Position numbers and translations under genes: made by a program. DNA of 61,637 bases, the filler included, from Sluysia triapertura (taxonomy: Eukaryota): NCBI GenBank assembly GCA_046118255.1. It is 5 parts of 5 records of this genome, joined end to end, with 100 filler letters (N's around TTAATTAATTAA, not from the genome) between each part and the next. Parts side by side here need not be neighbours in the genome. Positions count along the whole stretch, not along the records: positions 35,994 to 49,250 come from JBJNIA010049561.1; 4 more parts are not named here. One strand, 5' to 3'. The notes below the pieces were generated by a model that saw nothing but the letters and a program-made list of their open reading frames with translations, had not been told where the DNA came from and searched no databases. Positions 5,901-61,561 of this stretch are shown in pieces (the first letter of the stretch is position 1; each line of letters begins with the position of its first letter).

Positions 5901-6754
5901 AAATAAATTTGTGCTTAAAAGATTTGGTTGATAAATTTTTTGCCAATCCCCTTTGAGGAAAAAATGCATTGCATGTTATTTTGCAACTTAGCATTAATAT
6001 TAAAACGAATATGTATGAGTTGTTTTTGAAAATTGCGCTTATCATCGATTTCTGTTTTTTTTTAAAATAAAGGATATAAACGTAAAACGATATTTATTTA
6101 GACAGAATTTTATCATTATTCCACATATTATTCCCACTTTATATGAAATGAAAAGATTTTGTATAATATATAGAAAATACTGCTTTATTTAGTATTACAG
6201 TTAGAACAATAAATGTTTCAATTCAATTCCGTATTAATTTTTAATATTTTAGGTAAATTCTATTGTGTAATCAATTTCTTGTAGTAAATATCATATTTGA
6301 TTTTAATATTGTCATTTAATTTTCATTTATAATATTGACTTAACCATATCACTATTTATTTATACATTCATTTTGTAGTTACGTGTACATTTTTATCACA
6401 TCTACATTAAAGACAGATTTTTTCGATCTTTCAGTGCTATCATATGATCCATAATTGTTAATTAAATATTATGAGTCATCCTCGATGTTTCTTACATTTT
6501 ATTTTTGTTTCCTTGATTTAAGAAGATTTTGAGATGCTCTGTTGATTTCAGAACTTTTAAGATATTTTTTTAAAGCTACGGAGATATTTAAAATATATTA
6601 AGATTATTCAAATTTACTTGTAAAATTACATTTTTGTTAATGTGGTATAACATTAGATTATTATTATTCTCATTATTTCACTTTTCGATTAATACTATGA
6701 CAATAGTCTTATTAATTTTGTAATTTATTAAACTAAATTATTTTTTTACAACAG

Positions 6755-7029
6755 GTGCTGCATTAGGTCCTTTTTTAACTGGTTGGATTGTACCATATGG
6801 ATGGAATAAAGTATTTCTTATGCTCATAGTAGCCGATATTTTTGCTTTAATAACAATGTGCTACATAATATTTTCAAATATGATGATCAAATTGCGTACT
6901 CGTGCTGATAAAATTAAATTCATTAAATATTTAACGAAACTACTTCGAACCAGAATTTTTATTGTTTTTTCATTTATTATCAGTTTAAGTTTTATTATTT
7001 TCGGTGTTTATCAGTTGAAGAAAAAATGA
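6755..7029 (+). CDS. SLC37A: SLC37A1/2-like sugar-phosphate exchanger, terminal exon
   Basis: The acceptor acag|GT completes the phase-1 Gly from the previous exon. Reads GAALGPFLTGWIVPYGWNKVFLMLIVADIFALI...YQLKKK*, in frame with ORF 6820-7029. Confidence 0.9.
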
Positions 7030-8590: not shown

Positions 8591-9360
8591 TTGAAGAGTA
8601 AGAAAATCGAAAGTAACATTACTTTATTACAAGAACGGCCACTTTACGATGTAACCGGACCCAGCTAAAATTTATTTTGCCGTAGGTTAAGAATTACGAA
8701 ATCCACAGCAGAAGTTAAACTTGACTTGATAATAAATGTTAGGATTTTTAAGCGTTAAGGTAAAAAATATTTTGTTAAAAATCCGTTTATTGTTGAATTT
8801 AAAATTAAAATAAATGTATTATTAAATTTAAGCGTAATTGTTAAAATTTAATCTCAACGATAAATTCTTAACTTTATCTCAATATATCAAGCAATTTACT
8901 ACTATTATTTCAACGTAAAGACATGAATTTATACGAGTGAAACTAATAAATAACTAGTCAAACCTGTTTTTATGCAGGAGATAGGGACCCTATAAAAATT
9001 CATAAAAATATGCCGAAACTTAGAAAATAGCTTTAAAATATTTTGTTTTGCAAAAAAATCAAAAAAATATCGCACAAAACAGGTGCTTTATTAATTAATA
9101 ACCAAAATTAATTAATTAGTTTATTAAATAATTACGCATGTAACTAATAGGCCGAACCAAAAAATGTACGATGTTCAGTAATTCAAAATAAAATTTAATA
9201 ATTAAAACAATATCAATACAGAACTATGAATAATGTATTTGGAGGACTGCGGTCTTCTTAACTCGTAATCTACGGCAAAATAAATTTTGGCGTGGTCCGG
9301 TTACTGTAAACAACTTACAATGTAAAGTGGGCATTCCCGTTCGATTTTCTTACACTTCAA
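8591..9360. repeat. inverted pair of a dispersed ~110-bp repeat (MITE-like arrangement)
   Basis: 8591-8710 (ttgaagagtaagaaaatcgaa...cactttacgatgtaaccggacc...aaaatttattttgccgtag) is the imperfect reverse complement of 9245-9360. Related pieces lie at about 30-115, 30211-30292 and 52954-52980. Confidence 0.75.
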
Positions 9361-10851: not shown

Positions 10852-10951
10852 NNNNNNNNNNNNNNNNNNNNNNNNNNNNNNNNNNNNNNNNNNNNTTAAT
10901 TAATTAANNNNNNNNNNNNNNNNNNNNNNNNNNNNNNNNNNNNNNNNNNNN
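10852..10951. other. artificial contig linker (N44-TTAATTAATTAA-N44)
   Basis: Identical 100-nt N block with an all-frame stop cassette. Confidence 0.98.
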
Positions 10952-11237: not shown

Positions 11238-12423
11238 ATGATTAATATATCTAGCAAAGGCGACGAATTGTTAGAAACTCGTTTAAGTAATATTTTAGTA
11301 TTGTGATAAAAGTATATGATATAGATGAGGTTACAAATCCTTTAAATCCTACTTTTAATGAACAAGCAGCAATTGCGTTTTGTGAACAAGTTATTAAGGA
11401 AGTTGAAGGTCATCAAGTTGCTGTTCGTTTGTTGGCACATAAAGTGCAGTCTCCACAAGAAAAAGAAGCTCTTTATGCATTTAATGTACTTTTTAAAATT
11501 TTAATTGTTAAATTTAGTTAATTGATGAATGCGTCCGCCGATGTGGTTCAAAATTTCATCAAGAAATAGGAAAATTTAGATTTTTAAATGAACTTATTAA
11601 GATAATTTCTCCAAAAGTATGTTTGTTTAAATTTCACATTATGTCTTTACAGTATTTAGCTCGTAGTATGTCATCATCAGTTAAAATAAGGTGCACAGAA
11701 TGCCTTTATTGTTTATATAAAGGTTTACCTCATGAAACGAAAATTGCTGAGGCTTATAATATGTTGAAAAAACAAAAAATAATCCAGAAAGATCCAACAT
11801 ATATGGACAGTAAAGTAATAACTTTTTCAAGCATTTATAATTCAAATAGATATTTAGAGCCGATTGCAATGTTAAAAAACCTAATAGTATATTTGATAGT
11901 AGTAAAGAATCAGAAGTTAGTTTAATTACGTTGAATAATTAATTAAATTGTGGATTATGTAATAAGTGTACTTAATTATTACTTTTTAACATTTTATCTA
12001 GAAGTTATCGCGATTACTGAAAAGCAGAAACCCTGATGATTTGAGAGAAGCAAATCGTATAATTAAGAGTATCGTGCACGAAGTTTGTTATTTTAATTAC
12101 AAAAATCTACTTTTTCGAAATTATACTGCAATAACTTTGTAATATTAATTGAATATTTTGTCACTAATATGTCAAAAAATATTGTTACAATATTTAATAC
12201 AATAAAACTGTGTAGTATTTTTATTTTGAATTAAGAATATTTTATAATAATAAATTATTGGTCATTAAACAAAATTTTATTTTAGGATAATCAACGAATG
12301 GAGATGTTATCAAAACGTGCTCTAGAAATCGAAACAATGAAAAATAATATAAAATTGCTAAGTGAAATGTTAGGATGTTACAATGTGAATGAAACCACGA
12401 CTGATGATATGGATATTATGAAG
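11238..12423 (+). CDS. GGA: GGA (ADP-ribosylation factor-binding, Golgi-localised gamma-ear adaptor), exons 1-7: VHS domain and start of GAT domain
   Basis: Exons 11238-11286, 11325-11485, 11518-11616, 11653-11814, 11850-11915, 12002-12082 and 12286-12423 are all GT-AG and stay in frame. Spliced product includes LETRLNEVTNPLN, AVRLLAHKVQSPQEKEAL, CGSKFHQEIGKFRFLNELIKIISPKY, ETKIAEAYNMLKKQ, KLSRLLKSRNPDDLREANRIIKSIVHED and NNIKLLSEML. Confidence 0.95.
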
Positions 12424-15499: not shown

Positions 15500-17394
15500 T
15501 GATAGTAATTTAATACAGTATAACTGAACATTTAGTTATTGTTACATATTTGTTATTGCAATAAAGAAATAAGATAATGCTTTACACTATTTATACCACG
15601 ACTTTGTATATACCGATTTCGACCAAAAAGTGCCTTTGCGCTTGAAGTTGTCGCCGTATTTATTCTTTTATGGCGTTCTTTATACTCAACTGTGAGTTCT
15701 AACTGGAATAAAGTATTCCGATTAAATCGAGAATATTGTGCCCAGGTCATCTACGGGACTTACATTTTACACTATATTTTCTAGCCATTGGGTCAGTTAC
15801 AACGGCCACAAATTTGTGCTATTATAAAATTTAATTGTTTCTGGAAAACGTTTTATTGCTATTTTCCACTTGTACTTATTAAAAGTACTTTTTTGTTTGG
15901 CTTACTTTTATAAATTGTTAAAGTTGAACTAATAGATGCGTAAAGTTGCATTATGAAGCGTTTCATTTTTGCAGATTTTTGAAGTTCTGTAGTAACGTTC
16001 CTGACCCTGCCAGTAAATTGCTCATGAGCTTCAAAACCAGAGACTCACCTAATGAAATTGATACCGGTATTTTGTCTTTTCCCAAACATGGGAACCCGTT
16101 GATAATATGTTTATCCTTTACATCAGATGTCCGCCAAAATTTTATGTCACAACCGGTTTATTCGGTATGTATTGGATGAACCTACATCTAGCTTTAGTCG
16201 GAAGAGCTTTTCGTCAACTGCTTTAAATGAATGAATGCCATACTTTTGATACCAAAACATTTATTTTCTCTCAATTTGTCTTTTCTCGTCTTTTTCATCA
16301 ACCTGCAAGAATTTTAGTATTTTCATAAAGGAATTGGCTCATGGTATTCGAAAAAAATGAAGGATCCCATTTCTTATTCCATAAAAGCGATGCGTGGACA
16401 TTTTTTTGATCACGTAGACCACGTACGTACAAAAGAGCTATAAATGCTTCTAATTTATCTCTAGGTAATTTATTTTCCCAAACTCTTCGTGCTTCCACTT
16501 CCGTAGATTTTATAATGTATTCCGTAATGTGGTTGTCAAATAGTAAATAAAATGCTGTGCTTACCTTCCTCTTCATAACATTTCTTTCGGCATGTCCAGT
16601 TGTACCAGATATACCTTTGAAAATAATGTGAAAAGCTGGTCTCCCAGGAGAGGAACCTGTTTCGATTTTCTTCCAAACTGTACCGTCTAGAGCAATTTCA
16701 ATATTCTCTTGCTCATTGTTTTCTTCATTGTCTTCAGAATCTGTCAACAACCTATTTCTTTTTCGTCTTCTACTTGCATTCAAAGTATCTTCCTCTTCAG
16801 TGTTTGAAAATTATTTTCACATTTGCTATCGCTATCGATTTCATGGACACTTTCGGAAAATTCAGCCAACTCATCTTCTCTTTCAGATTCTGAACTTTCA
16901 TCAATCTGAGAGCATTCTTCATTTATATTACTTATATTACTCCTTCATTTATGAGATTCTGGACATCCTTAGGATTAGTTATAAACTAACGAAATAATTT
17001 AAAATAAAATATTATACATTTCTATTTACACACCTGAAATGGCAATTTCAACTAATTTTACGACTGCGAAGGAAATACAAAAACTCCAACACTATTACTT
17101 CAATGATCTGCAGTAAAATGGAACATTGCAAATAGCAACCGAATATAAAAATTATAACGGTAATTTCTCTATCTTCTATTACAATTGAAATGGTGTTGCC
17201 AAATATTAAGTGTAAATTAACTTAAAATTTGAAAATGTTGTAAAATCGTACTAGAAATAGCTATGCCAGCTGAAGTAAAATTTAAATTTAATAAATTTAA
17301 CAATTATTATACGAGAAGTCAAAACATGAATTGAGAAAAAATGGTTAAACTTAGAAAATAATTTCAAAATAAAATGTTAAAGGTAGAAATAGTG
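15500..17394 (-). mobile_element. piggyBac element remnant inside GGA intron 7
   Basis: ORF 16298-16783 has an acidic N-terminus and FYLLFD...LEAFIALLYVRG...LW...FSNTMS. Downstream are VDEKLF (about 16215), IINGFPCLGKD (about 16090) and NVTT (about 15995). The terminus ...gtagaaatagtg|TTAA lies at 17394-17398. The left boundary is approximate. Confidence 0.88.
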
Positions 17395-23361: not shown

Positions 23362-23461
23362 NNNNNNNNNNNNNNNNNNNNNNNNNNNNNNNNNNNNNNN
23401 NNNNNTTAATTAATTAANNNNNNNNNNNNNNNNNNNNNNNNNNNNNNNNNNNNNNNNNNNN
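23362..23461. other. artificial contig linker
   Basis: N44-TTAATTAATTAA-N44. Confidence 0.98.
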
Positions 23462-31702: not shown

Positions 31703-31850
31703 CACTAATTCTACAAAAGGTGTCAAAAGACATCTTTTAACATTGTAATTTGAAATTATTTTCTAAGTTTAACCATTTTTTCTCAATTCATGTTTTGAGT
31801 TTTATTATAATAATTGTTAAATTTATTTAGCGGTATAATTTTCCTTCATC
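31703..31850 (+). repeat. isolated piggyBac terminus, same family as the end of the 15.5-17.4 kb element
   Basis: TTAA|cactaattctac...tttgaaattattttctaagtttaaccatttttctcaattcatgttttga is the reverse complement of about 17285-17398. Confidence 0.8.
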
Positions 31851-32129
31851 TCATCCTAGATCTAAAGATACATACCTGATATACAAAATCATGGTAGAAA
31901 TAATGTTAATATCTTTTTTCAGCATTCAATGAAACTATTACTCAAAAGACCTTAAAATAAATCAGTGTTACCACATTAAAGACAGCATGTGATGAAAACC
32001 GTATAGCCTGAATTCCCGCATATTTTGCTGAAATTATATAAATTAAAGGTAAATTATATAAAATATACGCTTGATTATATAAAATATACCAACTGATTTC
32101 GGACCCTATATATGTGATGCTGAAATACA

Positions 32130-34750
32130 ATACAAACGAAATCCTAACCTTAGCAACCTGACATCCGAGCCACCCGGCAACTCATCAGATCAACAGATCA
32201 ACCCATCTTCGAAAATCAAATCCAATCCCTGTACAACAAACTCCAAAATACTAGTGACATCCCGATAGATGAAATATTCCAATCCATATGTGATGCTATC
32301 CAACGGATTAAGCCACCCAAATTCCCAAACATTATGGCACAACACAAAAGAAGCTTGCAACGCGAAACGCTACAACCCAGATTGGACAAGATCTTCACTG
32401 AAAACCAAGCCAAAGCATTCCATATAATTACTGGAATAGCCAACTCTCCTACCAATCCCACACCAGAGGAAATCTGCCAGTACTTCAGTAGTGGAATAGT
32501 ACCACCGTTCGACCCACTTAAAGTCACTCACTTTCCAACATTCATGGACTATAGACTAGTGATCCCATCCTGGAGATTTAGATTCTCACCACTCTCAAAT
32601 ACTGCAAGCGCTCATCACCAGGTCACAACCAAATAATGTTCGAGAATTTAAAGGATGCCGATCCCACTGGTCAACCAAAAGGTCCAGACTGCTTGGAAGA
32701 ACTACAACACTGTATTGATAATCAAACCCAATAAATATGACTTGGCACAAGGCGTCGATTCATAGAAGCCTATAGCTATAGTGGACTGCAGTTATAGAGT
32801 CTTTGCCAAGATCTTGAATGACCGTTTACTGGCATGAGTCAAAAGTGGCAACCTCAAAGTACACACCAAGCTGCTCTTCTCCAATCAGATTGATACACCG
32901 AGCACAACTTCCAACTCCACTCACTTAGAGAAATAGTGGAGTCGATAAATCACAGGAAATCGCGCAAAATCGAATTACACATCGTCTTACTCGACTTGGT
33001 TCGGTGCGGCACAATCTGATATGGTATACACTTTCAAGTATGGAACTCCAACAGCAAACCCTGAACATCCTGAAGGACCTATACCAAGACAACAGTACCA
33101 CCTACAAATGCAATGGCATTATAACCAAACCCGTACCGATCATGTATGGAGTAAAACAAGGATATCCATTATCCATGACGCTATCTGATCAACCAGTTCA
33201 CGGATGATGACTACATCAAAATAACTGATGACCTAAAATTTCTTCCATACCTGGAATATGTTGACGACACAGCCCTCATCGTCACTACTTTCGACAGACT
33301 ACAACAAATTGTCAACGGAGTTGTCCAAAATGCGAAATCAGCCAACCTCATATTCCGGCCTACAAAATGCTTCTACGACAACATGCCCGGCTCGAGATAT
33401 TCACTACTAATCGAAAATACTCCGATTCCCTGTGTCACTATTCTGTGACTATAAACGGCAAAGTTTATTAATACACCGAACTAGTCTCGAAATCAAAACT
33501 GAGTGCCCGGAATAAGTTCCTCATATACAGAAACTTTGTGCAGTCCAGACTTTCGTTCCACCTAAGGAACCTGAATATCAATGTACAATCCCTCAGCAAT
33601 CCCCATCCTAAAAGCACATCCAAAGATATAAGAACTGCTGAAAATGAACAGGAGTTTCTTTCTTGCACACAGGAACCATGGAGGACTCAGCCTAACCTGA
33701 GCATATGACGACTACGTGTGTCAGAACGTGATGTGCGTTCAGACTATTCAATAGTCATAAACCGATAATACGCACACTGACACATCGGAAAGTTGTACAG
33801 ATAGCCAACAGCCGGATGAATGGAGATTGTGTGGATCTGACCCAAGCTCTCGCATGGCTCAATGGAAGTCCTACGGATAAGCGCACTCGGTTGCAAACCC
33901 GAACTTCTACCAAGAACTTGGAACAAAAGTATCGGATCAGTGCTTCATTCATCTGCTCTGACAACTACAATGTCTAACAATCCTTGAAGTCGGACATACT
34001 TGGCGACAACCCAATCATTATTAGCCACTACCAAAGAACAAAGTCGGAAAATACCTACACGAGCTGATCAGCACTTGCAATAACAATATCTGGAAGTCTA
34101 AAGTGCCAGGGTATCTATGTCGACTCTCTCATGCAGTGCCTACTCTCCAACAAATCCCTGTCACTTGAACTGGATGTTTAGTCTTAGTCTTAATTTCAGT
34201 CCACAGAACATGCGTCTCTATGTGCCAGTATCACGTCGATGGTGTGGCTTCGAATCTGAATCCCTTCTACACGTGCTCTGTCTATGTTCTCACACAAGCA
34301 CAGCCAGAACAGTCCGGCACAACAAAATCCTTAACTACCTAGTGGACAATATGACCGATAATCTCGGTCATCAAGGATTCGCATGCACCAATTATCGGTG
34401 AGTCTCGACGACCTGACATAGAGGCCCGCGGTACTTCCTCATCGCAACTGTTCTTGATTGATGCCAAAACTCCATGGACCTGAAGAAAAATTTCGAAATA
34501 GCCCGAACCACAAATATTGCGAAATATGCTGATCTCCAGGGCAAACTGCAGAAACAACTGAAGTGCAAGGTGTCTCTGGATACATTCGTCGTTGGAGCGT
34601 TTGGTTCATGGGATCCCTAGAATGACAAGCTTCTCAAGGCGCTTGGCTTCCACAAGACCGAAATCAAGACCCTAGTACGACTAGCTGTGAAGTCCTCAAA
34701 TAACGCATGCTGCGACCATGTCCTACAAGGTCCTTAAAAAGAGAAAGAAA
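32130..34750 (+). mobile_element. decayed non-LTR retrotransposon with RT and restriction-like endonuclease (NeSL/Utopia/R5-type)
   Basis: GC-richer island. RT motifs: KPI...YRVFAKILNDRL (about 32770-32830), GVKQGYPLS (about 33150-33175), YVDD (33257). Then a degenerate CCHC (RWCGFESESLLHVLCLC), RHN (34315), RRPDI (about 34407), LIDAKTP and FVVGAFGSWDP*ND (34585-34626), followed by an A/G-rich tail. Many stops and frameshifts. Confidence 0.9.
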
Positions 34751-34839: not shown

Positions 34840-35031
34840 CGAAGTCTAACATATATCTAATATAAATAATAAAAATTCGGAAACCAAAATGAATGTCTTT
34901 CATATAAAATCCACAGTGATAATGAAGATAGGTGATAGGGTATGAATCATTTATGGAACCAAATCACCAAAGGTTTATTAAATATTTAAGAAAACGACAA
35001 ATACTTACAATTTCAAAAATATTTTAGTAAG

Positions 35032-35886
35032 TGATTTATTTTAAGCGCTTTTGAGTACTTACTTTTTAGTAAATAGTAGCGCCAGATAAATTAATATATT
35101 AATTATTATTATTTCTTTTTGAAAATACCAAGAATATTCGAGTTCTTTGAATTATTTCTTTTTGTTAAAGTTTTAGTTAAACTATTTAAGATTAATTAAA
35201 TTAAAAATAATTTTTAACTTTATTTTTATTTTTTAAGTACTTACTTAAGTACTTATAATAATATGAGGATGAAACTTCTTTTTATGTAGTATTCTGTGTT
35301 TATACTATATTATGGCCAGTACGTTTTTGAATTCCACGCTATTATATGGCCAATCTTTTTCTATAATTAAAATCATTGAAATAATTTTAATAATATCCAT
35401 TGTCGCGATATTATTTCTATATTATCGGTGTGATTATATTATAATTTATATATTTATTTAATTTACATTCTCATTTTTTGTGTTGATTTATGGTTAATAG
35501 TTTTTGTATTTTCATTTTATTAATTTTTTTTACACTTTTGCCGTTTAATTAAGTTTGATTAATTTTCTCTGCGTTCTCTTTTTATTTTCTTTGGTTTTCG
35601 TTCAAATCTTTAAGCGTTTCCTATTTATTAATATTTTATTTTTATTTTTGGTAGTTTTGAATTTAAGTTTATTTAGATTTTAAATTATGAAAATTATAAT
35701 TTAATAAAAGTATAAGGTTTAGCTCACAATATCGAAACTGCAAATTCTAAGCTTAAATAAAACGAAGCCGATATTAGAATTTTGTTCATTACTATACTTT
35801 CATACTTTTATATTAATAATATATTAATTTATATTGCGCTCATATCTACTGCAAAGTAAGTACTCAAAAGCGCTTAAAATAAATCA
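35032..35886. mobile_element. MITE-like element with perfect 34-bp inverted repeats
   Basis: tgatttattttaagcgcttttgagtacttacttt (35032-35065) is the exact reverse complement of 35853-35886. The match extends imperfectly inward and the interior is non-coding. Confidence 0.8.
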
Positions 35887-35893
35887 TTCACCA

Positions 35894-35993
35894 NNNNNNN
35901 NNNNNNNNNNNNNNNNNNNNNNNNNNNNNNNNNNNNNTTAATTAATTAANNNNNNNNNNNNNNNNNNNNNNNNNNNNNNNNNNNNNNNNNNNN
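35894..35993. other. artificial contig linker
   Basis: N44-TTAATTAATTAA-N44. Confidence 0.98.
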
Positions 35994-37319: not shown

Positions 37320-38141
37320 ATGGGCTCTTCCAAATCTAAAGAATTGGTAAGAGATCAACCAAATGTAAGTATTTCTGAATGTCCAGTACAGCACGTAAAT
37401 AATTCATCATCCGCTGGCCAAAGTCAAGCATCTCATAAAATAAGTTTATCTTGTCCAGTTGGAGAACAAATTGATCTATCAAACATGATGCCTCCTGCTA
37501 ATCAAAATCCAAGCCCAGATCAACCTTTTTTATTGTCAACAGATAGGGTTGTATCTTCAATTCCGAAATTTGGCGATAAAGAAGATGAAAACTGGGTATA
37601 TCCGTCTGCTCAAATGTTTTGGAATGCGATGATTCGTAAAGGTTGGCGTTGGAAAGATGATGATATTAAAGTCGAAGACATGGATAATATAATAAAAATA
37701 CATAATGTTAACAATGAATTGGCTTGGCGTGAAGTACTTTTATGGGAAAGCATGCATTTTGACGAATGTAAAACTCCAAAGTTAAAAAGATTTGGTGGTA
37801 AAGCAAAAGATTATTCTCCACGTGCAAGATACCGACATTTAATAGGTTATGAATATCCTTTTGATAGACATGATTGGGTTGTTGATAGGTGCGGAAAAGA
37901 AATTCGATATGTGATTGACTACTACGATAGTGGTAATGTCGATAAGAATTTTCAGTTTGCATTGCTTGATGTACGTCCAGCAATTGATTCGTTACAGTCA
38001 ATAATTGATCGCCTTAAAGTTACTTATTGGAGATATACGAATACTAATCCAAATTTACCTTCAATTGAAAAATATTTCAAGTCAAGTAAAGAATCAAGTA
38101 TATCTAATTCAAGTAAAATGGAACAAGTTAAAAATTCATAA
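37320..38141 (+). CDS. HCCS: holocytochrome c-type synthase (cytochrome c heme lyase), single exon
   Basis: 273-aa ORF with an MGSSKSK N-terminus, two CPV heme-regulatory motifs, [66 protein letters not shown] and LDVRPA. Confidence 0.97.
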
Positions 38142-42900: not shown

Positions 42901-45423
42901 CTTCAGAAAAATGATCCATATCATAATTTTTTTATGGTTAAGCATTAGATGTCAAATGATAACATTAAAGAAATTTATCTTTGTCATATTTACCTAACCT
43001 TAATATCACTGTAATATATTGGTTACGTTAAAGAAATGTTTAGCTTGTCGTCCATTTAAAAATAACTTTAGTGTGGGAAATGATGTTTTATTTTTTTTTA
43101 ATTTTTTATGAATTTTTATTTGATTTTCCATTATTTATTATGTTAATTATTAATTTGTTGACTTGGTTATTAAAATTTTTATCAACACTCTTAAAAAACA
43201 TTACTTAGGTGCTAATTGCAGTTAGACAATTCATTATTATTCTTAAAATTTAAATTGTAGATAAGAAATTATGAAATCAAATTTTATTTCTGTTAGAAAT
43301 AGACAAAAGGAGGGATTATAATTCAATCGTACACAGGTCACTTTTGGTCAATGTTGAATAAAAATCTTAGTAACTGAGATAAATTTGGTAACAGTAGCCT
43401 TTATTACAGAACGTAATTTCCACGATAGTTGTCAGAACAGTGTCCAATCTACTTAGGTCTTAGATAGTGCCGCCGAGGGTCGATACAATTATACATACTA
43501 GATGTTTGAGCGATGAACAGCCTACACCGCCTACACTGAATACGTATGCGTAACGACTTCGACCATATCGTCAACTCGTGATGTTTAGACGAAGCATATG
43601 ATATTATTTCTATTTGTGTTAATATTACGTTGTTTGAAGGGTAATTAATTATTAAAAAATAAAACTTAAAATTATTTACAACACAAACACTCTTAAGATT
43701 AAAACTACAAATAAGAAAAGACAACTGTGCATATTCTTGTATGCAAACTAATTATATAATACGTTAAACAATTTTACTAAAAAAGAAACAGTACTTCACA
43801 ATACATTGACTAAACTAATAATCGGATCGTCAAATATAAAATTGGAAATATTGTTCGTATAGTGAACAACCTGAACATCGAACCGCAGTAACAAAATATC
43901 TAGATCTGACATAGTATGCCATGCCTGTCTGATGATAGTTTCATTTAATTAAATTATCTGTAGTTATCATACTTCTCTTGCATTTTAAATCACCATCTGC
44001 AAAATCTTTTTCTATGGCATCTGGTTTATGATATTTCAAATGGTTCGTCATGCCAACAATCTAAAACATTCGGAGCTACTAAATAACAATCATTTTAAAT
44101 GCCGAGCTGACGTCTTTACGTACGCAAACATCGGGATCGTTGTCTTGTAACTCAGGTTTTGGAATCCTCATCTGAAATCTATCTACATTAAATCCAACCA
44201 GATTAGCTCCGGATCGCACATTGTAACATTTTTATTAATTTTTGTACAATTCCAAAAATAATACCAAGGTCAACTTCTATATAGTTTTTGATTCAATGAA
44301 ACAATTTAATGTCTTTAAACAACCTATTTGTATTCTTTAATTTTTCTTTTTTTAATTCCTTGGCTTAGAAGGAATTGTATAAAATATAATATAAATATAA
44401 TATAATATAAAATGTAACATAATAAAATATAATACAAAATATAATATTGTCAAATATACATACAATATGAATGGCAAATATGAACATTGATCTGCAAATG
44501 TGGATACAACATATTGATTTATAAATGTAAAATATTCATTTGTTAATACAAATCTATTTGTAAATAACGATAATATTGATTTATATGTAATTTAAATATT
44601 GATTCATTTAAATTATTTTACGGATATTAAATTAACGTTTTAAAGAAGGTAAATTATTTTTAATTATTTTTAAAATCATCTTTATAAAGTAATAAAATAA
44701 TAAATAAATAGTTTGTTTTTTGGGAATATAAAAATTTTTATCTTTTATTTTGTTTTAAATCGTTATTGACCTTCAAGGTCACATGTTTAGTATTTAATAG
44801 AAAATATGTTAAAATCTCAAGCAAAAATACAGAAAACTCATTAATACTGACTTTCTTATATTTTGGCATTAACGTTATCAAAGCTAACCATTGTCTTCTG
44901 ATACCAGAAAAGAATCTCATTATTAAACATCCGTCATTTGTCTTGTCAAATCGTTAGTTTAATTGTTTAGGATATTTTGCAATTTTACCACTAAAATACC
45001 ACTAAAAATCTTTTAAAATATTATAGAGCTACTATTTAATAAAGTAGCTGATTAAAATACTTTTTCAAATATATACATATACCAAGATTATTGTAACAAT
45101 CCTTATAAATTCATTTATTTTATTGTTGTATTTTCATTTTATTATTTAGTAATATAATTTCATACTAATTTGGTGCATTATTATTTAACAACAAATAAAT
45201 TTAAAATTGCTTTGTGGTTCATTTTTAAGAACCAAATTAAAATCTTCTTTAATTAAAAACTTTCATAAATTACTAGAAAAGTTTTGGTTGAAGAAAGTAG
45301 AAACAAATTAATTTCCTTAAATATTAAGATTGTGGAAATCAAAAGCTAGCCCTGACCGGTACGTTGATGGACTCACTACATTTATTTTATCCACAAGCTA
45401 AAGAAAAATCTAGCAGAATAAAC

Positions 45424-45440
45424 TGGTACCCAGGTTGAGG
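45424..45440 (+). promoter_or_regulatory. candidate tRNA primer-binding site
   Basis: TGGTACCCAGGTTGAGG lies about 350 nt upstream of gag and just downstream of a dispersed repeat. It starts with TGG (complement of tRNA CCA). The cognate tRNA was not verified. Confidence 0.45.
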
Positions 45441-45789
45441 AACAGCATACAATAATTAATTGATACTAAATTATAAAAATTCCAAAGTTATATAAGTTTA
45501 AGAAGAATTTAAGAATTTAAGAATACAAGAAAATTTTTAGTTAAGGTATAATTGCAATTTCACTAAAGATATGTTATCTTTGAGTATTATTATATCCAAA
45601 GTTATTAATTAACAGTTTTATAAAGATTATACTTTAAGTAAGTGAGTTTTAAGTAAAAATAGATAAACAAATAGTATTATACAACGATTACAGAACAAAA
45701 TTAAGAAACTATATGGCATTGCATAACGATTTTAAAGAATATAAGGTCAGTTAGCAAAAGAGATACGTCCCATATTAACTTTACCAGAA

Positions 45790-46815
45790 ATGAGCAAATT
45801 TAATGGAGCAGAGGAAGACCTCTGTGATTTCCTTTTTGAATATGAAAGCATTGCCGAAGCAAATGGCTGGAATGAAATTGAGAAAGTTCAAATAATACAA
45901 AACTATTTAACACGAGCAGCAATCCAAATCTATAAGGAAATAAGTAACATTGATAAGAAATCTTGGAATGCATTTGTAAATGCTTTTACCAAGGATACAG
46001 TCCTCGATGATGTGACAAAACATTATTCAGAGAAATTAAATTTAAGACAACAAAAACCAAATGAAACTATATATGAATTCACATCCGCTCTTGTTGCCAG
46101 GACAAAAGTCCCTGAAGATAAAAAAGAATCTACATTATTGGATAAGTTGAAAACTGGCTTTCGTCCGGAATTAAGGACATATGTTACATTAATGGAGAGT
46201 AAACATTTTAAGGAGATAATTAAAAAGCTAAGAAGTATGGAAAGGTCTTATAGTGATGATAGAGATAATATTAATTATGTAAGTGATAATGATGACAAAT
46301 ATAAAAGAGATAAAAGCCCAAAATTCAAAAGAAATAAAGATAATTTTGATAATTATAATTATAGATATACGGATAATTCCTCAAATTATGACGAATATAA
46401 TAATCGAAATAATTCTTCAAATTATAATTGAAATAATTCTTATGATGGATATAATAATAATAGATTTAATGGCCCACGTAGAGGCATCTCAAATAGTTAG
46501 AAGGATAATTCAAACAATTATAGAGGAGATAATAACATAAGTAGAGGATTTCCGAATAGTAGAATAAGTAGTTATGAGAAAAGTCCAGCACCGAGATGGC
46601 CACCTAGTTCTAATTTTAATAAGAATAAGAGTATGAGTCCAATAAGATATGAAAACAATAAGACTCAAACTAATATAGATGGAAAGATAATCTGTGACAA
46701 CTGTAATAAAAAAGGACATTACGCAAGAGATTACAGAAAACTAAGGCAGAATGTGCTTACTCAAGACTTTACTAGAGTAGAGATATCAAAGCCCAAATGG
46801 AAAAGTAAGGTTTAA
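45790..46815 (+). pseudogene. retrotransposon Gag (capsid, Asn-rich linker, degenerate zinc knuckle)
   Basis: ORF 45790-46431 reads KFNG....FLFEYESIAEANGWNE..K...YL...A...W..F..AF...LNLRQQKPNETIYEF...G..PELR. The frame continues through stops to ICDNCNKKGHYARDY (ORF 46633-46815). Confidence 0.88.
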
Positions 46816-47386
46816 TAATGATAATAATAAGAATTATAAGGAAAAAATAAATTGAAATTATAGAAATCCAAAGGATTATAGAAATAACAGAAATGATTAT
46901 GAAAATGAAAACGAATATCAATGAGAAGAAAAGAAATAACAATAGAAGAAAACCAAAAAGAAGAGAAATAAGTAGCGATGAAGAAGATGATAAATACCTT
47001 AAATTAATTACCGACGAGAAAAAGAATGCTATGCTTAGAGAATTTTATATTACTGGCTTGATTGTGATAAAAATAGATTTAAAAATAAACAAGAAGAAAT
47101 CTTTATGAGTTACATGCATATTAGACACCTAGAATTTCAAAAGGATAATCAAAGAAGGACACAACGAGAAAAAGAAGAAAATAGACTAACAATACAACCA
47201 ATTCAGGTTAGAAATACAAAATCAACCAATGGATAAAAGAAATAAAAGAAGTAATTACAAACGACGATAAAAGAAAAATAATTCAAGAATAATCAATAAA
47301 TGGGAAGGTAATGTAAGGAAAATTGAACTAAATAGGAAAAATGACAAAGAGATATATTCAAAGAGATATATAACCCTAAAGATTTA

Positions 47387-47581
47387 ATGAAAATAAGTAT
47401 AATTTTTAATAGTGCTTTGAATATTACGATGGAACTCCCATTAACGTCAATTGTAAAAGATATTATAGAATTACTCGGGTTAAATTATTCAACTATAACT
47501 GATGTTGATTTATATTTTTATGATAGAAAATTATTACCTAATGATTATATAAATGATTACGGTTATCCATCAATGAATTGA
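47387..47581 (+). pseudogene. ubiquitin-like domain ORF within the retroelement
   Basis: MKISIIFNSALNITMELPLTSIVKDIIELLG...DLYFYDRKLLPNDYINDYG follows the ubiquitin pattern MxIxV...ITLEV...V.D....I...RLIFxGKxL...LxDYG. No C-terminal GG. Confidence 0.5.
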
Positions 47582-48060
47582 GACAATTAGGAAGCATCAA
47601 TGATTTCTGCAGTTATTATGTCATACACTCAACCTTCGAACTATTTAAATAAATTAAATGAGCTTATAAAAGATGATAATGATGTTGATTTTGATAGAAC
47701 TCGACTATCACTATTAAAAGAATTAATGGAAGATGATTATAATAATAATTATTATTATATGGATCGTTGTAAAATTATAGACATTACTAATGATAATGAT
47801 GATCTTATTGGAGAAAAAACTGATTACATAGTAGACTTAAATAAAAACCCATATATAGAAACAGAATATAAGGAAACAAATACATTTAAAAGAAAACAGG
47901 TAGATCTGGAAGAAATAAAGATAATGATGAAATAACAATTCCAAATCCAATACATAAATAACCCATTAATTTAAGAAAATGTACTTATAAAAATCTAAAA
48001 GAAACACTAAATACCAGAAGCATAATTTATGCATTATTATCTACTTTCGATAATTATAAA

Positions 48061-48370
48061 ACATTATTACCTGAATTAAACGAATATAAAAGGACATTAT
48101 CAAAAATAATTAAAAAGATGGAAAAAAATATAAAAATACGAATATAAGTGATTAATACAATGATAATAATTAATACAAACCTATTATAACCAAACAAGTT
48201 AACACAGGAATTAATAAAGAAAAACTTAAAATTATAAAAGCTTATATAATATTTCAATGTAATAAAGTTGATTAATAACTAATGAAATGATATATAAAGT
48301 TATAAATTTTACTGAAAAGAAACTTGGTGCTTGGATAAAGGAACAAGGAGGATGGAAAAATATTATTAAA
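48061..48370 (+). pseudogene. Bcl-2-family-like segment (clear BH2; putative degenerate BH3 and BH1)
   Basis: MIYKVINFTEKKLGAWIKEQGGWKNII (48287-48367) matches BH2 (Bax LDFLRERLLGWIQDQGGW). Upstream segments RTLSKIIKKMEKN and NTGINKEKLKII lie in other frames at Bcl-2-like spacing. Confidence 0.55.
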
Positions 48371-48459
48371 GAAAAAGAAAAGAATAGATTCAACGAACCA
48401 CTTAATATGATAACAAAGTTAATTAATAATAAAGAAATATTGGCATTATTTTGAATTCA

Positions 48460-49030
48460 TCTAGAAAATCCTATTAAACTTTTGACTGCAGTCAACCCCA
48501 AATTTTATTGGACACATTTTTTTATTGGGCACTGAAGATTGTCCAGAATCAAGACCAAACAGAGTCAAGATAAAATACATGAAAATACTTAATGTTTATC
48601 AATAAAGGAATTTAGTTAAAACACTGGTAAAGGGATGTTTAGTTAAAAGATCTGTAGTTATTTAGTATTGTGGTCATCACAGTCACTCATCGATAATAGG
48701 TATATAATCTATTATATCCATTTAAGATATCTCCTAATAATTGTCGTGACGCTTTTGAAACTGGATGTATAAGTTTAAATAAAGGGGACAAATTAGGAAC
48801 AACGAGAAAATAATTTATAATGTAAGGTCATTAGGTAACGTACTTTTGAAAGTGGGAAGAAAAATTTATCACGATGTAGTGGCTCAAGAAACATGTGTAT
48901 TAAGTTTAAGATCTTTTAATGAAAGTTTTGATTTCGAGAAAGGAAGTATGATGTCACGACCATTCTGTAGAAGTGACCAAACAAGTTGTGATACTGGTAA
49001 ATCTATACTAATATACGAATTTGAAAATTT
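48460..49030 (+). pseudogene. env-like fusion glycoprotein related to chuvirus (Jingchuvirales) G, N-terminal part, decayed
   Basis: Across frameshifts: FDCSQP...EDCP...LNVYQ...GCLVKRSVVI*YCGHHSHSS...ISPNNCRDAFETGCISL...YHDVVAQ...FCRSDQTSCDTGKSILIY. The order and spacing match chuvirus G (YDC...C...Q...C...R...YCGxHSHxS...C...ETG...VVVQ...C.....C). Confidence 0.75.
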
Positions 49031-49250
49031 TCAGTACCCATTAATTTTTTTCAAACAAATTAAATTTAATTTAATTTCGGGATTTCATCAAAATGAATAT
49101 GAATTAGCTGTAGAAGAATTTATTGTTGTTATTATTATTAAATGATTTAAATGCATAAAATCTTATAAAAGCCTCTTTTACACGATCTGTTCTTTATCTT
49201 ATGCTTTTCTTACATATATAGTGAAATAAAAGAAAAGACGCAAATGTTGT

Positions 49251-49350
49251 NNNNNNNNNNNNNNNNNNNNNNNNNNNNNNNNNNNNNNNNNNNNTTAATT
49301 AATTAANNNNNNNNNNNNNNNNNNNNNNNNNNNNNNNNNNNNNNNNNNNN
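49251..49350. other. artificial contig linker
   Basis: N44-TTAATTAATTAA-N44. Confidence 0.98.
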
Positions 49351-57750: not shown

Positions 57751-60255
57751 TTATCAAAGAATTATACTGACTTTCGAACAAATATTTTTAGAAGTATATC
57801 TTTGTTTTTTACATTATTTTATTAGTTAATAAAAGTCTTTGTTCCTGTGGTCGTTCAACTCATTCATTTAAAATTTTTCTCCACACAAAACATCAAACAC
57901 CTATACAACCACATAACAGTTAAACAACAAAATATATTTAAATCTTCATAATTTCAAATGCAGACTAAAAATTTCTGAAATTTCTGTAAAAACAATGTCA
58001 TCCTTTCTTAATTCTCTACCATAACTCTTTTCCTAACTTTCACTTCTTTCTAACCTTCTATCTTATTTGCTTTCCTAACTTACATTTACATGTTCAATAA
58101 CTGTTAGACATTACACACAATTCCATATTTCTCTACACTAAACATGGTTTTGTCTAAGTATTACCAAGAACTGTAATCTATAATAGATTATTATAAATCC
58201 GTAGATGAGTTCTCTTCAGATTATACAAATGAAAAAAAGTGCTTTGAAAGGTACATTTGGCAAGTGAATCATGCAAGTCCAGAAACTCGTAACAAACCCG
58301 ATGAAATTAAGCAATGCGAAATAGATAAACTGAATACCGTATTTTCTTGCTATAGCCCGCGGGCTATACATTGAAAAAAATGTATTTTTGTGGTGCGGAT
58401 TATAAATCAATAGTTTAGAAATTTATTTTATTGATCCTAAAGAAATATTGATTTTCAAATGAATCTAATGTTGTCAACAACAAAAACCAATATAATTTAA
58501 AAAGAAACATTTAAATTGTATTAAATTTATATTTATTTGGTGATATCCAAAATTTTTGTATTCAAAAATATTTAAACCAGATATATATGGTTTATTTATT
58601 ATTTATTTATTATATATGTCTGCGAGTTAAATTAAAAAAAGTTGATTTTTATAATGCGGGATATATATATATATATAAAGTGCGGATTATACACAAGAAA
58701 ATACGATAGATTAGCTGGTGCTATGAAATTTTTATCAGGTGCCGAAGATGATTCTCTTGATAATGACATTTATAAAGAACGAAATCATATTCATATTTCA
58801 TCATTTACAATTGAAGATTTGTGATTTTTGATTAAAAAATGTAGAAAAGATCTGCCAGAAGTAGATAAAATTCAAGAACAGGAATATCAAAGACATAAAT
58901 GTGAAAAGCGTTGAAAGTTCGACATAAGATCCTGTAAATAGTCAAGAAATGGAGGACAGTTATTATGGATACAGAAAAAGTGTGTTTCGAAAGAAAAAGA
59001 AAACATTATATAAGATATTTTTAAACCAACGAAAACATTAAAACAAGTGACAAATATCATATAAAAACTAAAGGCGATGATAATGAAAAATCAGAGATAG
59101 TAAATATAGATAGTAAAAAAATATAGATAGTAAATATAGATTAAAGAAGATAGTAAGTCGAAAAGCACTGTTTATAAAAGGGATATGCTGCATTAATAAA
59201 ATCATTTTAAAAAATGAATATCTTCATTTGCCATAAAAATTAAAATTTTTATGTGTGACAACGTAGAAAGTTGTTTTTTAATTCAATATAAATATAATAC
59301 TAAAATTAGTGGATACAAAAATTAAATTTTATTATCAGATAACATTCCAACATTCCATGAACGATGAATTTAAGATTAAACAATGTTAAATTACATGATT
59401 TTATGATCCTATTATTGCTAGATATTGTTAAACATTCAGAAAAGATCATAATTCCAGCTTCAATCTAATTATAAAGCAAAGATGAATTTAAAATTAGACA
59501 ATCTTAAAATACTTGATTTTATAATCATAGTACGGCTTGATATTAAGAAGACAAACGAAGTCAAACTATTGTATTAATGCAATGGGATGACGACTTTCAA
59601 GTTGAATAATGAAGTTAGAAGTTGTTCTATTGCTCAAGTACATCAAGTACTAGTGATAATTCAATTTTCCTTTTCATTTCATTTTGTGTTGCCATCTTTA
59701 TGAGTTATTCATTCTACATAAATTGTTTATTTCTAATATATGTTTCGTTGTTATTCACTTTTATTACTCTAATCGCAGTATAATCAATGTTAATACTTTT
59801 AAAACGAATATTTTTTAATCATAATTAACATTTTTATAACAAATATTATCTAATAATAATGAACTTCATAACTGTAAAGTTCCAATAAATTTTACGACTT
59901 TTGTCAAAGGCATTAAGTCTAATTTAAATGTTCTTAAAGTTATTTTTAAGTTAAATGCTTATGATGATAAAAATTTCTCATAAGTTTAATGTTTTCAATT
60001 TGCAAAAAAAGATGATAAAATTTCTTTATATAAATAAAATCTTAAAACGTATAAAGCCCTCCACTATTATTATTATATTTTATGTAATTAATGATATATG
60101 TAATTAATATATAATGCATTTAATATATCATTCAAACTCAAAAAATATTAATAAGAAAATAATTATTTTAAAAAATCAATAATTAAAATAAATTAAAACT
60201 TACTTAATGAACAGTTTTACGATATCAACTAGTTTTCATTTATCCTCACATTAAG

Positions 60256-60546
60256 AATCATGCGTTGAAACAGATATTGACATTACCGAAATTTTAATCC
60301 AATCATTTACGCATGAAAGCAAATTACCAAATAATGATAATACCGATCAAACATATTATGGAAATAAATGTAAAATGTACAACATGATTCCATTTAATAA
60401 ATACATCCGTTACATTTTATTCGATAGATCAACATTACCTCATTACACAATTCGTGAAATTGATACTAGAATATTGTCAGAACGTTTAATGCATAATAAA
60501 CCATTAACAAAAATTATTTTAACTTATAAGTTTCTAGGTGACATTG
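60256..60546 (+). CDS. probable exon of an unidentified gene
   Basis: About 97 open codons (SCVETDIDITEILIQSF...YKFLGDI) between taag and gtataa, including ORF 60375. No family recognised. Confidence 0.35.
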
Positions 60547-61561
60547 GTATAATTTTGTTTTTATCAATGCTACGTTTTATTAATATATAAAAGAATTAAA
60601 TTTGACTTATAATCGATTAACTCCTATATGTTCTTAAAATCTTAGTGAAATATTATCGAATTGCACAATTGTAATAAAAATAAAGTTAAGTCATAATCTT
60701 TTCAAAGATAACGCTTCAATAGCATTGTGTTACTTAGTGGCTACATCAATTAATTTACAATATTTATGCCCTGTCTCATATTAATTTAGGTAGTTATTTT
60801 TTTGGTAAAGTTTTACTTTGGTAAAGTATTGAATTTTCAAATTTAAGTCTTAATAATCTTGGTACATTGGATCTAAAAATTATGAGTAAATTCATCACAG
60901 GTTTATGTCATAATACTTCATTAGATTTATCTTTAATTCATTCTATAATAAAATGACTTTATATAACTTCAATAAAGTATTAAAAATAAATGAAACTTTA
61001 GAGGAATTAATTTTGGTTAATGATTATATCTATACTGAACAACTACATCAATGTCAAATAAAAAAATTTTACGATTAGGTTTAAAACCAATTTTAACAGC
61101 TGTTATTTATTAAGTCATTAATTTTTGCTTGAATATAAAAGCCAACCATTTAAAATTTCGATTTTTGAAATTGTAAAAGTAAATGATGATTTTAAAGTTT
61201 TAGTGAAAAGATTGGTGGAACTTATTCCAGATTTAATAATACTAACTGGTGTTAGATTAATCGAAATAGTAACTTCATATATTATCCATAATATCGATTA
61301 AGTTTATTGGTCAGGAAATTTGATGTGAAAATAACATATTTTTGTGCAGAATATATTAATAATGAAGATGAAAAACATTTTAACAACTCTTTTTTATTCG
61401 GGTATTGTCAAAAGTACAATTGATGATTTGTCAGAGAATCAAACTGCATAGCTGTGAGGTAAGAGAGCCTCAATTGATCAATCAATTTAATGAAGTCTCA
61501 CATCTACCAAAAAAACATTATAATAATAAGTTTAACCATTTACTCAAAATAATAAGCTCTT

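Follow-up and report, generated by a model that had tools for sequence, protein, structure and literature searches.

A decayed retroelement segment with a Bcl-2-like piece directly upstream of a gB/chuvirus-type envelope gene

General structure of the retroelement segment

The window, by which we mean the whole stretch of 61,637 nucleotides that was analysed, carries a decayed segment of a multi-copy retroelement at about 45.6-49.1 kb, all parts of which lie on the plus strand within 3.5 kb. A capsid-like Gag comes first, followed by a zinc knuckle, then by a ubiquitin-like and a Bcl-2-like piece, and last by an envelope glycoprotein of the gB/chuvirus type; only about 2.8 kb lie between the start of gag and env. 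The features distinguished are the following:

45745..46428, plus strand: capsid-like Gag ORF, 228 amino acids stop to stop (PDB sequence search, Arc2)
46693..46734, plus strand: CCHC zinc-knuckle remnant in the gag frame, fourth ligand missing (Pfam zf-CCHC)
47387..47578, plus strand: ubiquitin/SUMO-like piece of 64 codons, a lead only (ESM Atlas)
47591..47932, plus strand: acidic stop-free coding stretch of 114 amino acids, between the ubiquitin-like and Bcl-2-like pieces (no Pfam match)
48061..48144, plus strand: piece at the BH3 position, start modulo 3 of 1, placed by spacing only (top frame in the codon model)
48174..48272, plus strand: piece at the BH1/helix-5 position, start modulo 3 of 0, without NWGR (top frame in the codon model)
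48275..48454, plus strand: helix 6, BH2 (W..EQGGW) and tail in a 59-codon stop-to-stop frame, start modulo 3 of 2 (Pfam and PDB)
48478..49142, plus strand: truncated and frameshifted 5' part of the envelope glycoprotein gene, gB/chuvirus type (PF24664)
49251..49350, no strand: assembly gap of two N runs with a 12-base spacer, just beyond the element copy (sequence)

The Gag ORF gave no Pfam match, and both of the two PDB sequence matches that it returned were to the Gag-derived Arc2 capsid, weakly so (best E=0.37, over residues 27-168). Its single-sequence fold (pLDDT 41) found no fold match, a blank result that is not counter-evidence. The zinc knuckle matched Pfam zf-CCHC with E=0.0021 and 18.5 bits, the cut-off of that family being 20.8 bits.

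The ubiquitin/SUMO-like assignment comes from the ESM Atlas (recognition 3063), where the top three matches (0.91-0.93) were unnamed clusters and the four named ones (0.88-0.89) were clusters of PF11976 Rad60-SLD and/or PF00240 ubiquitin. The piece was modelled as strand-strand-helix-strand (single-sequence fold, pLDDT 58). A search with this fold gave 50 rows, none of them ubiquitin, and no match reached a Z of 5, which is again a blank and not counter-evidence; Pfam had no match to the piece, and the only two matches in the PDB sequence search were both designed proteins.

The element copy breaks off within env at about 49.1 kb, a short way before the assembly gap. No pol, LTR pair, primer site, second element copy or tRNA gene was found in the window.

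Other features of the window

The DNA of the window is AT-rich and eukaryotic, with a GC content mostly of 0.18-0.30. It is interrupted by four gaps of equal length (10852-10951, 23362-23461, 35894-35993 and 49251-49350), each made of two 44-N runs with a 12-base spacer between them; the last of these has stops in every frame. Since the gaps are assembly joints, the sequences on either side of them may not be adjacent.

A host gene for cytochrome c heme lyase (HCCS), intronless and 273 amino acids long, lies at 37320-38138 on the plus strand (Pfam PF01265, E=1e-57). A VHS domain (PF00790, E=1e-10) in a stop-free frame at 11518-11922 (plus strand) probably represents an exon of a trafficking gene of the host, and a weak match to an MFS transporter (Pfam E=0.001) at 6724-7026 (plus strand) is probably also a host exon. 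Two remnants of DNA transposases were recognised on the minus strand, at 1752-2045 and 16301-16810 (DDE_Tnp_1_7, E=2.5e-4 and 9.5e-5, respectively). Pairs of inverted repeats of 58-92 nucleotides with 83-93% complementarity occur at 8651-9304, at 35027-35891 and between 17290-17381 and 31736-31827, and are likely ends of small DNA transposons. Finally, a GC-richer island at 32001-34400 (0.42 over 32001-34000) holds stop-free frames of 160 and 99 amino acids with no clear Pfam match; at a guess, it is possibly a remnant of a non-LTR retroelement.

The Bcl-2-like piece

A first-pass annotation of this DNA had proposed a Bcl-2-like module immediately upstream of the env-like gene, with a BH2 region preceded by divergent motifs at the places of BH1 and BH3. 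All three motifs are present where it had put them, that is the BH2 stretch INFTEKKLGAWIKEQGGWKNII at 48302-48367, GINKEKL at 48207-48227 and LSKIIKKME at 48097-48123, and the spacings of about 40 codons (BH1 to BH2) and about 39 codons (BH3 to BH1) hold, as do the TGA at 48452, the FDC motif within 48478-48498 and the size of the BH2 ORF, below 60 amino acids (59 codons stop to stop). LSKIIKKME, GINKEKL and BH2 lie in three different frames (start modulo 3 of 1, 0 and 2, respectively), so that a Bcl-2-like 'domain' requires two frameshifts and contains stops. When a codon model was trained on five stop-free stretches from elsewhere in the element, the top frame for each of the three pieces was the one that carries its motif, an agreement which depends partly on the choice of stop-free pieces, a stop penalty being included in the score.

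A query made of the 57 residues of the BH2 frame matched Pfam Bcl-2 (PF00452) with E=0.003 and 18.5 bits over profile positions 78-100 of 100, and 24 of its 26 PDB sequence matches belonged to the Bcl-2 family (best E=0.085). With a longer query, in which the frame break before the BH2 piece was read as X, the Pfam match was nearly unchanged (E=0.0026, 18.7 bits, positions from 75), while the PDB matches were Bcl-2 family members in 24 cases out of 24, with 37 residues aligned and a best E of 0.0071 to A1/BFL-1; the last few residues of the BH1-position piece lengthen the match to this protein. The comparison with PF00452 that had been suggested thus gave a profile match over BH2 and the helix before it, but the scores of 18.5-18.7 bits lie under the curated cut-off of 31.4 bits, for queries covering just a part of the domain. 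A Pfam match to LuxE (E=0.02-0.08) was dismissed as due to chance, and the ESM Atlas had no usable match to the BH2 ORF.

The BH1 signature of the Bcl-2 family is NWGR. At the expected distance the window has GINKEKL instead, which takes no part in the Pfam or PDB alignments, and the piece at the BH3 position stands at the right distance, in a frame that looks coding to the codon model, but gave no profile match. On their own, the BH1-like and BH3-like pieces gave no Pfam match. The reading of GINKEKL as BH1 and of LSKIIKKME as BH3 therefore keeps the support of spacing and frame, although neither was matched in any search, and the module as a whole is matched at its BH2 end while its motifs are split over three frames. 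Beyond BH2 the sequence is only mildly hydrophobic, its highest Kyte-Doolittle mean over 15 residues being 1.17, and has no clear tail anchor. Because the PF00452 cut-off and the BH1 signature are not reached on these pieces, we call them Bcl-2-like.

Could the similarity be that of a BH2-like octamer only, which by chance arose or survived in a linker from gag to env where no Bcl-2 domain exists? The Pfam score below threshold and the unmatched BH1-like and BH3-like pieces are in line with this, and so is our control, an unrelated ORF at 60255-60587 that also reaches E=0.003 in Pfam, with another family, so that this E-value alone is not decisive. We nevertheless consider such an accident highly improbable. 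A six-frame search of the window for the pattern W-x4-GGW, picked after the fact, finds it once, and 300 windows simulated with the same composition do not contain it; the similarity continues upstream across the frame break; the BH2 core is nearly unchanged among the copy differences listed; and the position is exactly that of the BCL-2 motif in planarian Burro elements, as given in the available part of PMC6431247. The matches show what is, at the level of sequence similarity, a helix-6/BH2 remnant, and from spacing, frame and context we infer the remainder of the Bcl-2 domain.

Other copies of the element and database searches

The element belongs to a large and diverged family: 5,374 contigs of run X1 align with 44500-49250, and 4,102 of them are less than 95% alike. 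X1 is the one run listed with related DNA, and no RNA run was listed. The region of the Bcl-2-like piece (47950-48620) aligns with 675 contigs of the same run. Among the eight pieces listed for this region, three cover the BH1-like piece together with BH2 and one covers the junction from the tail after BH2 to env; none of the eight covers BH2 to env. In 40 of the 77 rows of differences, a single one, silent, falls in the BH2 stretch (48302-48367). These comparisons are the partial output of a single run that is possibly the window's own source, and depth is not taken as copy number; within that output the motif is kept in other copies, contrary to the lack of conservation against which the first-pass annotation had warned.

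The same comparison bears on a different origin, in which the window copy alone received a piece of a host Bcl-2 gene by insertion. The best PDB matches are to cellular proteins (A1/BFL-1, Bax), as this origin would have it, but the BH2 region is covered by many diverged contigs, some of which link it to its neighbours, and its codon use agrees with the rest of the element; we hold such an insertion to be extremely unlikely.

Protein database searches with gag, the env piece and the BH2 ORF found no relatives, and scans of IMG/VR with env and with gag and of metagenomes with the BH2 ORF came back empty. A representative-library search returned a single match, to a bacterial SdrD-repeat protein, which was dismissed as spurious, and the metagenome scan with gag gave a single locus (L001) in a prokaryotic stretch, which was dismissed as well.

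The envelope gene and the decay of this copy

The env piece matched PF24664 (Monjiviricetes_fusion) with E=1.7e-6 and 26.8 bits, the Pfam cut-off being 27 bits. The profile match begins at about 48516, the BH2 stretch ending at 48367, and the placing of a Bcl-2-like module directly before the env gene of a retroelement is thereby supported. Two cysteines 11 residues apart precede a CG-x-[HW]SH motif, and a PFC-x6-C-x-TG-x-S motif is also present; compared by eye, these cysteine motifs agree with those of the Smed_errantivirus_1-6 envelopes, as represented by six rows of supplement 2 of PMC13524379. They would correspond to the C1a cysteine pattern of the gB-type env in GAG-ENV-POL errantiviruses of Platyhelminthes.

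The same layout might be that of an element of a different lineage, such as BEL/Pao with a glycoprotein of the chuvirus type, or the host might not be a planarian. The window copy has no pol, and glycoproteins of the PF24664 type occur in BEL/Pao elements too, as stated in the portion of PMC13524379 available. Against this stand an env that directly follows the gag region with motifs, by eye, like those in six Schmidtea envelopes of the same source, and the order ubiquitin-like, Bcl-2 and env, which is that of Burro in the accessible text of PMC6431247. We judge another lineage or host to be very unlikely.

This copy of the element is dead, broken and cut off. Over 45600-49150, the codon model counts 8-13 frameshifts and 16-24 stops, depending on the penalties used. 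Given the frameshifts and stops, the lack of pol and LTRs in view and the end before the gap, the production of a protein from this copy is very unlikely. The Bcl-2-env polyprotein that had been thought possible has been published for planarian Burro elements (PMC6431247). The window copy has no continuous ORF, and the support for a Bcl-2-env fusion accordingly comes from published relatives and not from this DNA.

Interpretation and significance

Very probably, the copy is a broken and cut-off member of a multi-copy, env-carrying retroelement, which is likely of the Ty3/gypsy type, related to Burro and resident in a planarian. Its coding region has, in this order, a capsid-like gene and a zinc knuckle, then what are likely a ubiquitin-like piece and a Bcl-2-like domain, and then env; in published intact relatives all of these are made as one polyprotein. 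We deduce a planarian host from the motifs of the envelope and from the layout, and since pol, LTRs and a primer site are out of view, the window copy does not itself show its lineage. In intact relatives, the parts from gag to env would be made as a single polyprotein, as published for Burro; cleavage at the start of env may then free a Bcl-2-fold protein, which might damp host cell death during replication of the element, as viral Bcl-2 proteins do.

Poxviral Bcl-2-fold proteins are antagonists of host defence. An unlikely variant, by our estimate, is that the element is an undescribed compact relative of Burro, whose Bcl-2-fold protein lacks the BH1 groove signature, is freed at the env signal sequence and acts as a host-defence antagonist rather than as a plain BH3 binder. 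If this variant were true, it would be the first functional Bcl-2 mimic from a transposon.

The feature, read as part of a Burro-related element, is real, and its layout is already known in print for planarian Burro elements. The novelty implied by the first-pass annotation is unsupported for that reason (the layout stands in the part of PMC6431247 available), and the window copy adds little, being another decayed and diverged member of the family. Interference of such elements with host apoptosis was called 'worthy of experimental confirmation' in 2019, in the available text of PMC6431247, and our literature search found no experiment that tests this. If a transposon did encode a working Bcl-2 mimic, this would amount to control of cell death by a selfish element within an animal dependent on stem-cell turnover; the dead fragment of the window offers no easier route to testing the mimic than intact Schmidtea copies.

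Comparison with known systems

Burro1-4/GYPSM1 are gypsy-like LTR retroelements of giant size that occur in Schmidtea mediterranea and its Dugesiidae relatives (Jurka 2007 and Grohme et al. 2018, cited in PMC6431247). As described in the available part of Arkhipova & Yushenova 2019 (PMC6431247), Burro/GYPSM1 encodes a single polyprotein in which Gag with CCHC knuckles, a Ubi2/SUMO-like domain (PF11976) and a BCL2-like motif are found, with env between BCL2 and the protease, followed by pol; in one planarian, Burro fragments are in decay, with stops and frameshifts. BURRO1 is expressed upon removal of PIWI, according to the accessible text of PMC8532177. Compared with this description, the window copy differs in being dead and ending in env, in its single knuckle remnant where Burro has two or three, in the MATH domain, which was not detected, in the distance of only about 2.8 kb from the start of gag to env, and in PR, RT, IN, BIR, ankyrin and LTRs, which are out of view. 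It shares with Burro/GYPSM1 the order, on one strand, of a Gag with a CCHC knuckle, a Ubi2/SUMO-like lead, a BCL2-like motif and env, the motif lying directly before env and env in the interval from gag to pol, and with the fragments of the one planarian its decay by stops and frameshifts.

GAG-ENV-POL elements with a gB-type env have been described in Platyhelminthes (Chary & Hayashi 2026, PMC13524379). Among these, Smed_errantivirus_1-6 have an env of the HSV/gB type, with listed copy numbers of 1-215 and listed spans of 14.5-18 kb in the material available from that paper. By eye, the window env is about 11 codons shorter than theirs, with one cysteine fewer, from the third cysteine to the PFC motif. 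A Bcl-2 cargo, as in the window element, is unmentioned for Smed_errantivirus_1-6 in the available material of PMC13524379, where 'bcl' does not occur in the main text or the seven supplements searched. As in the window, their env follows gag and has, by eye, the same cysteine motifs, and the elements are multi-copy.

Finally, the window piece is unlike the members of PF00452 (cellular A1/BFL-1 and Bax, viral BHRF1) in that it has no NWGR, no recognisable BH3 and no clear tail anchor, and in its score below the family cut-off. It is like them in helix 6 and BH2 (W..xxGGW), which align over 22-37 residues.
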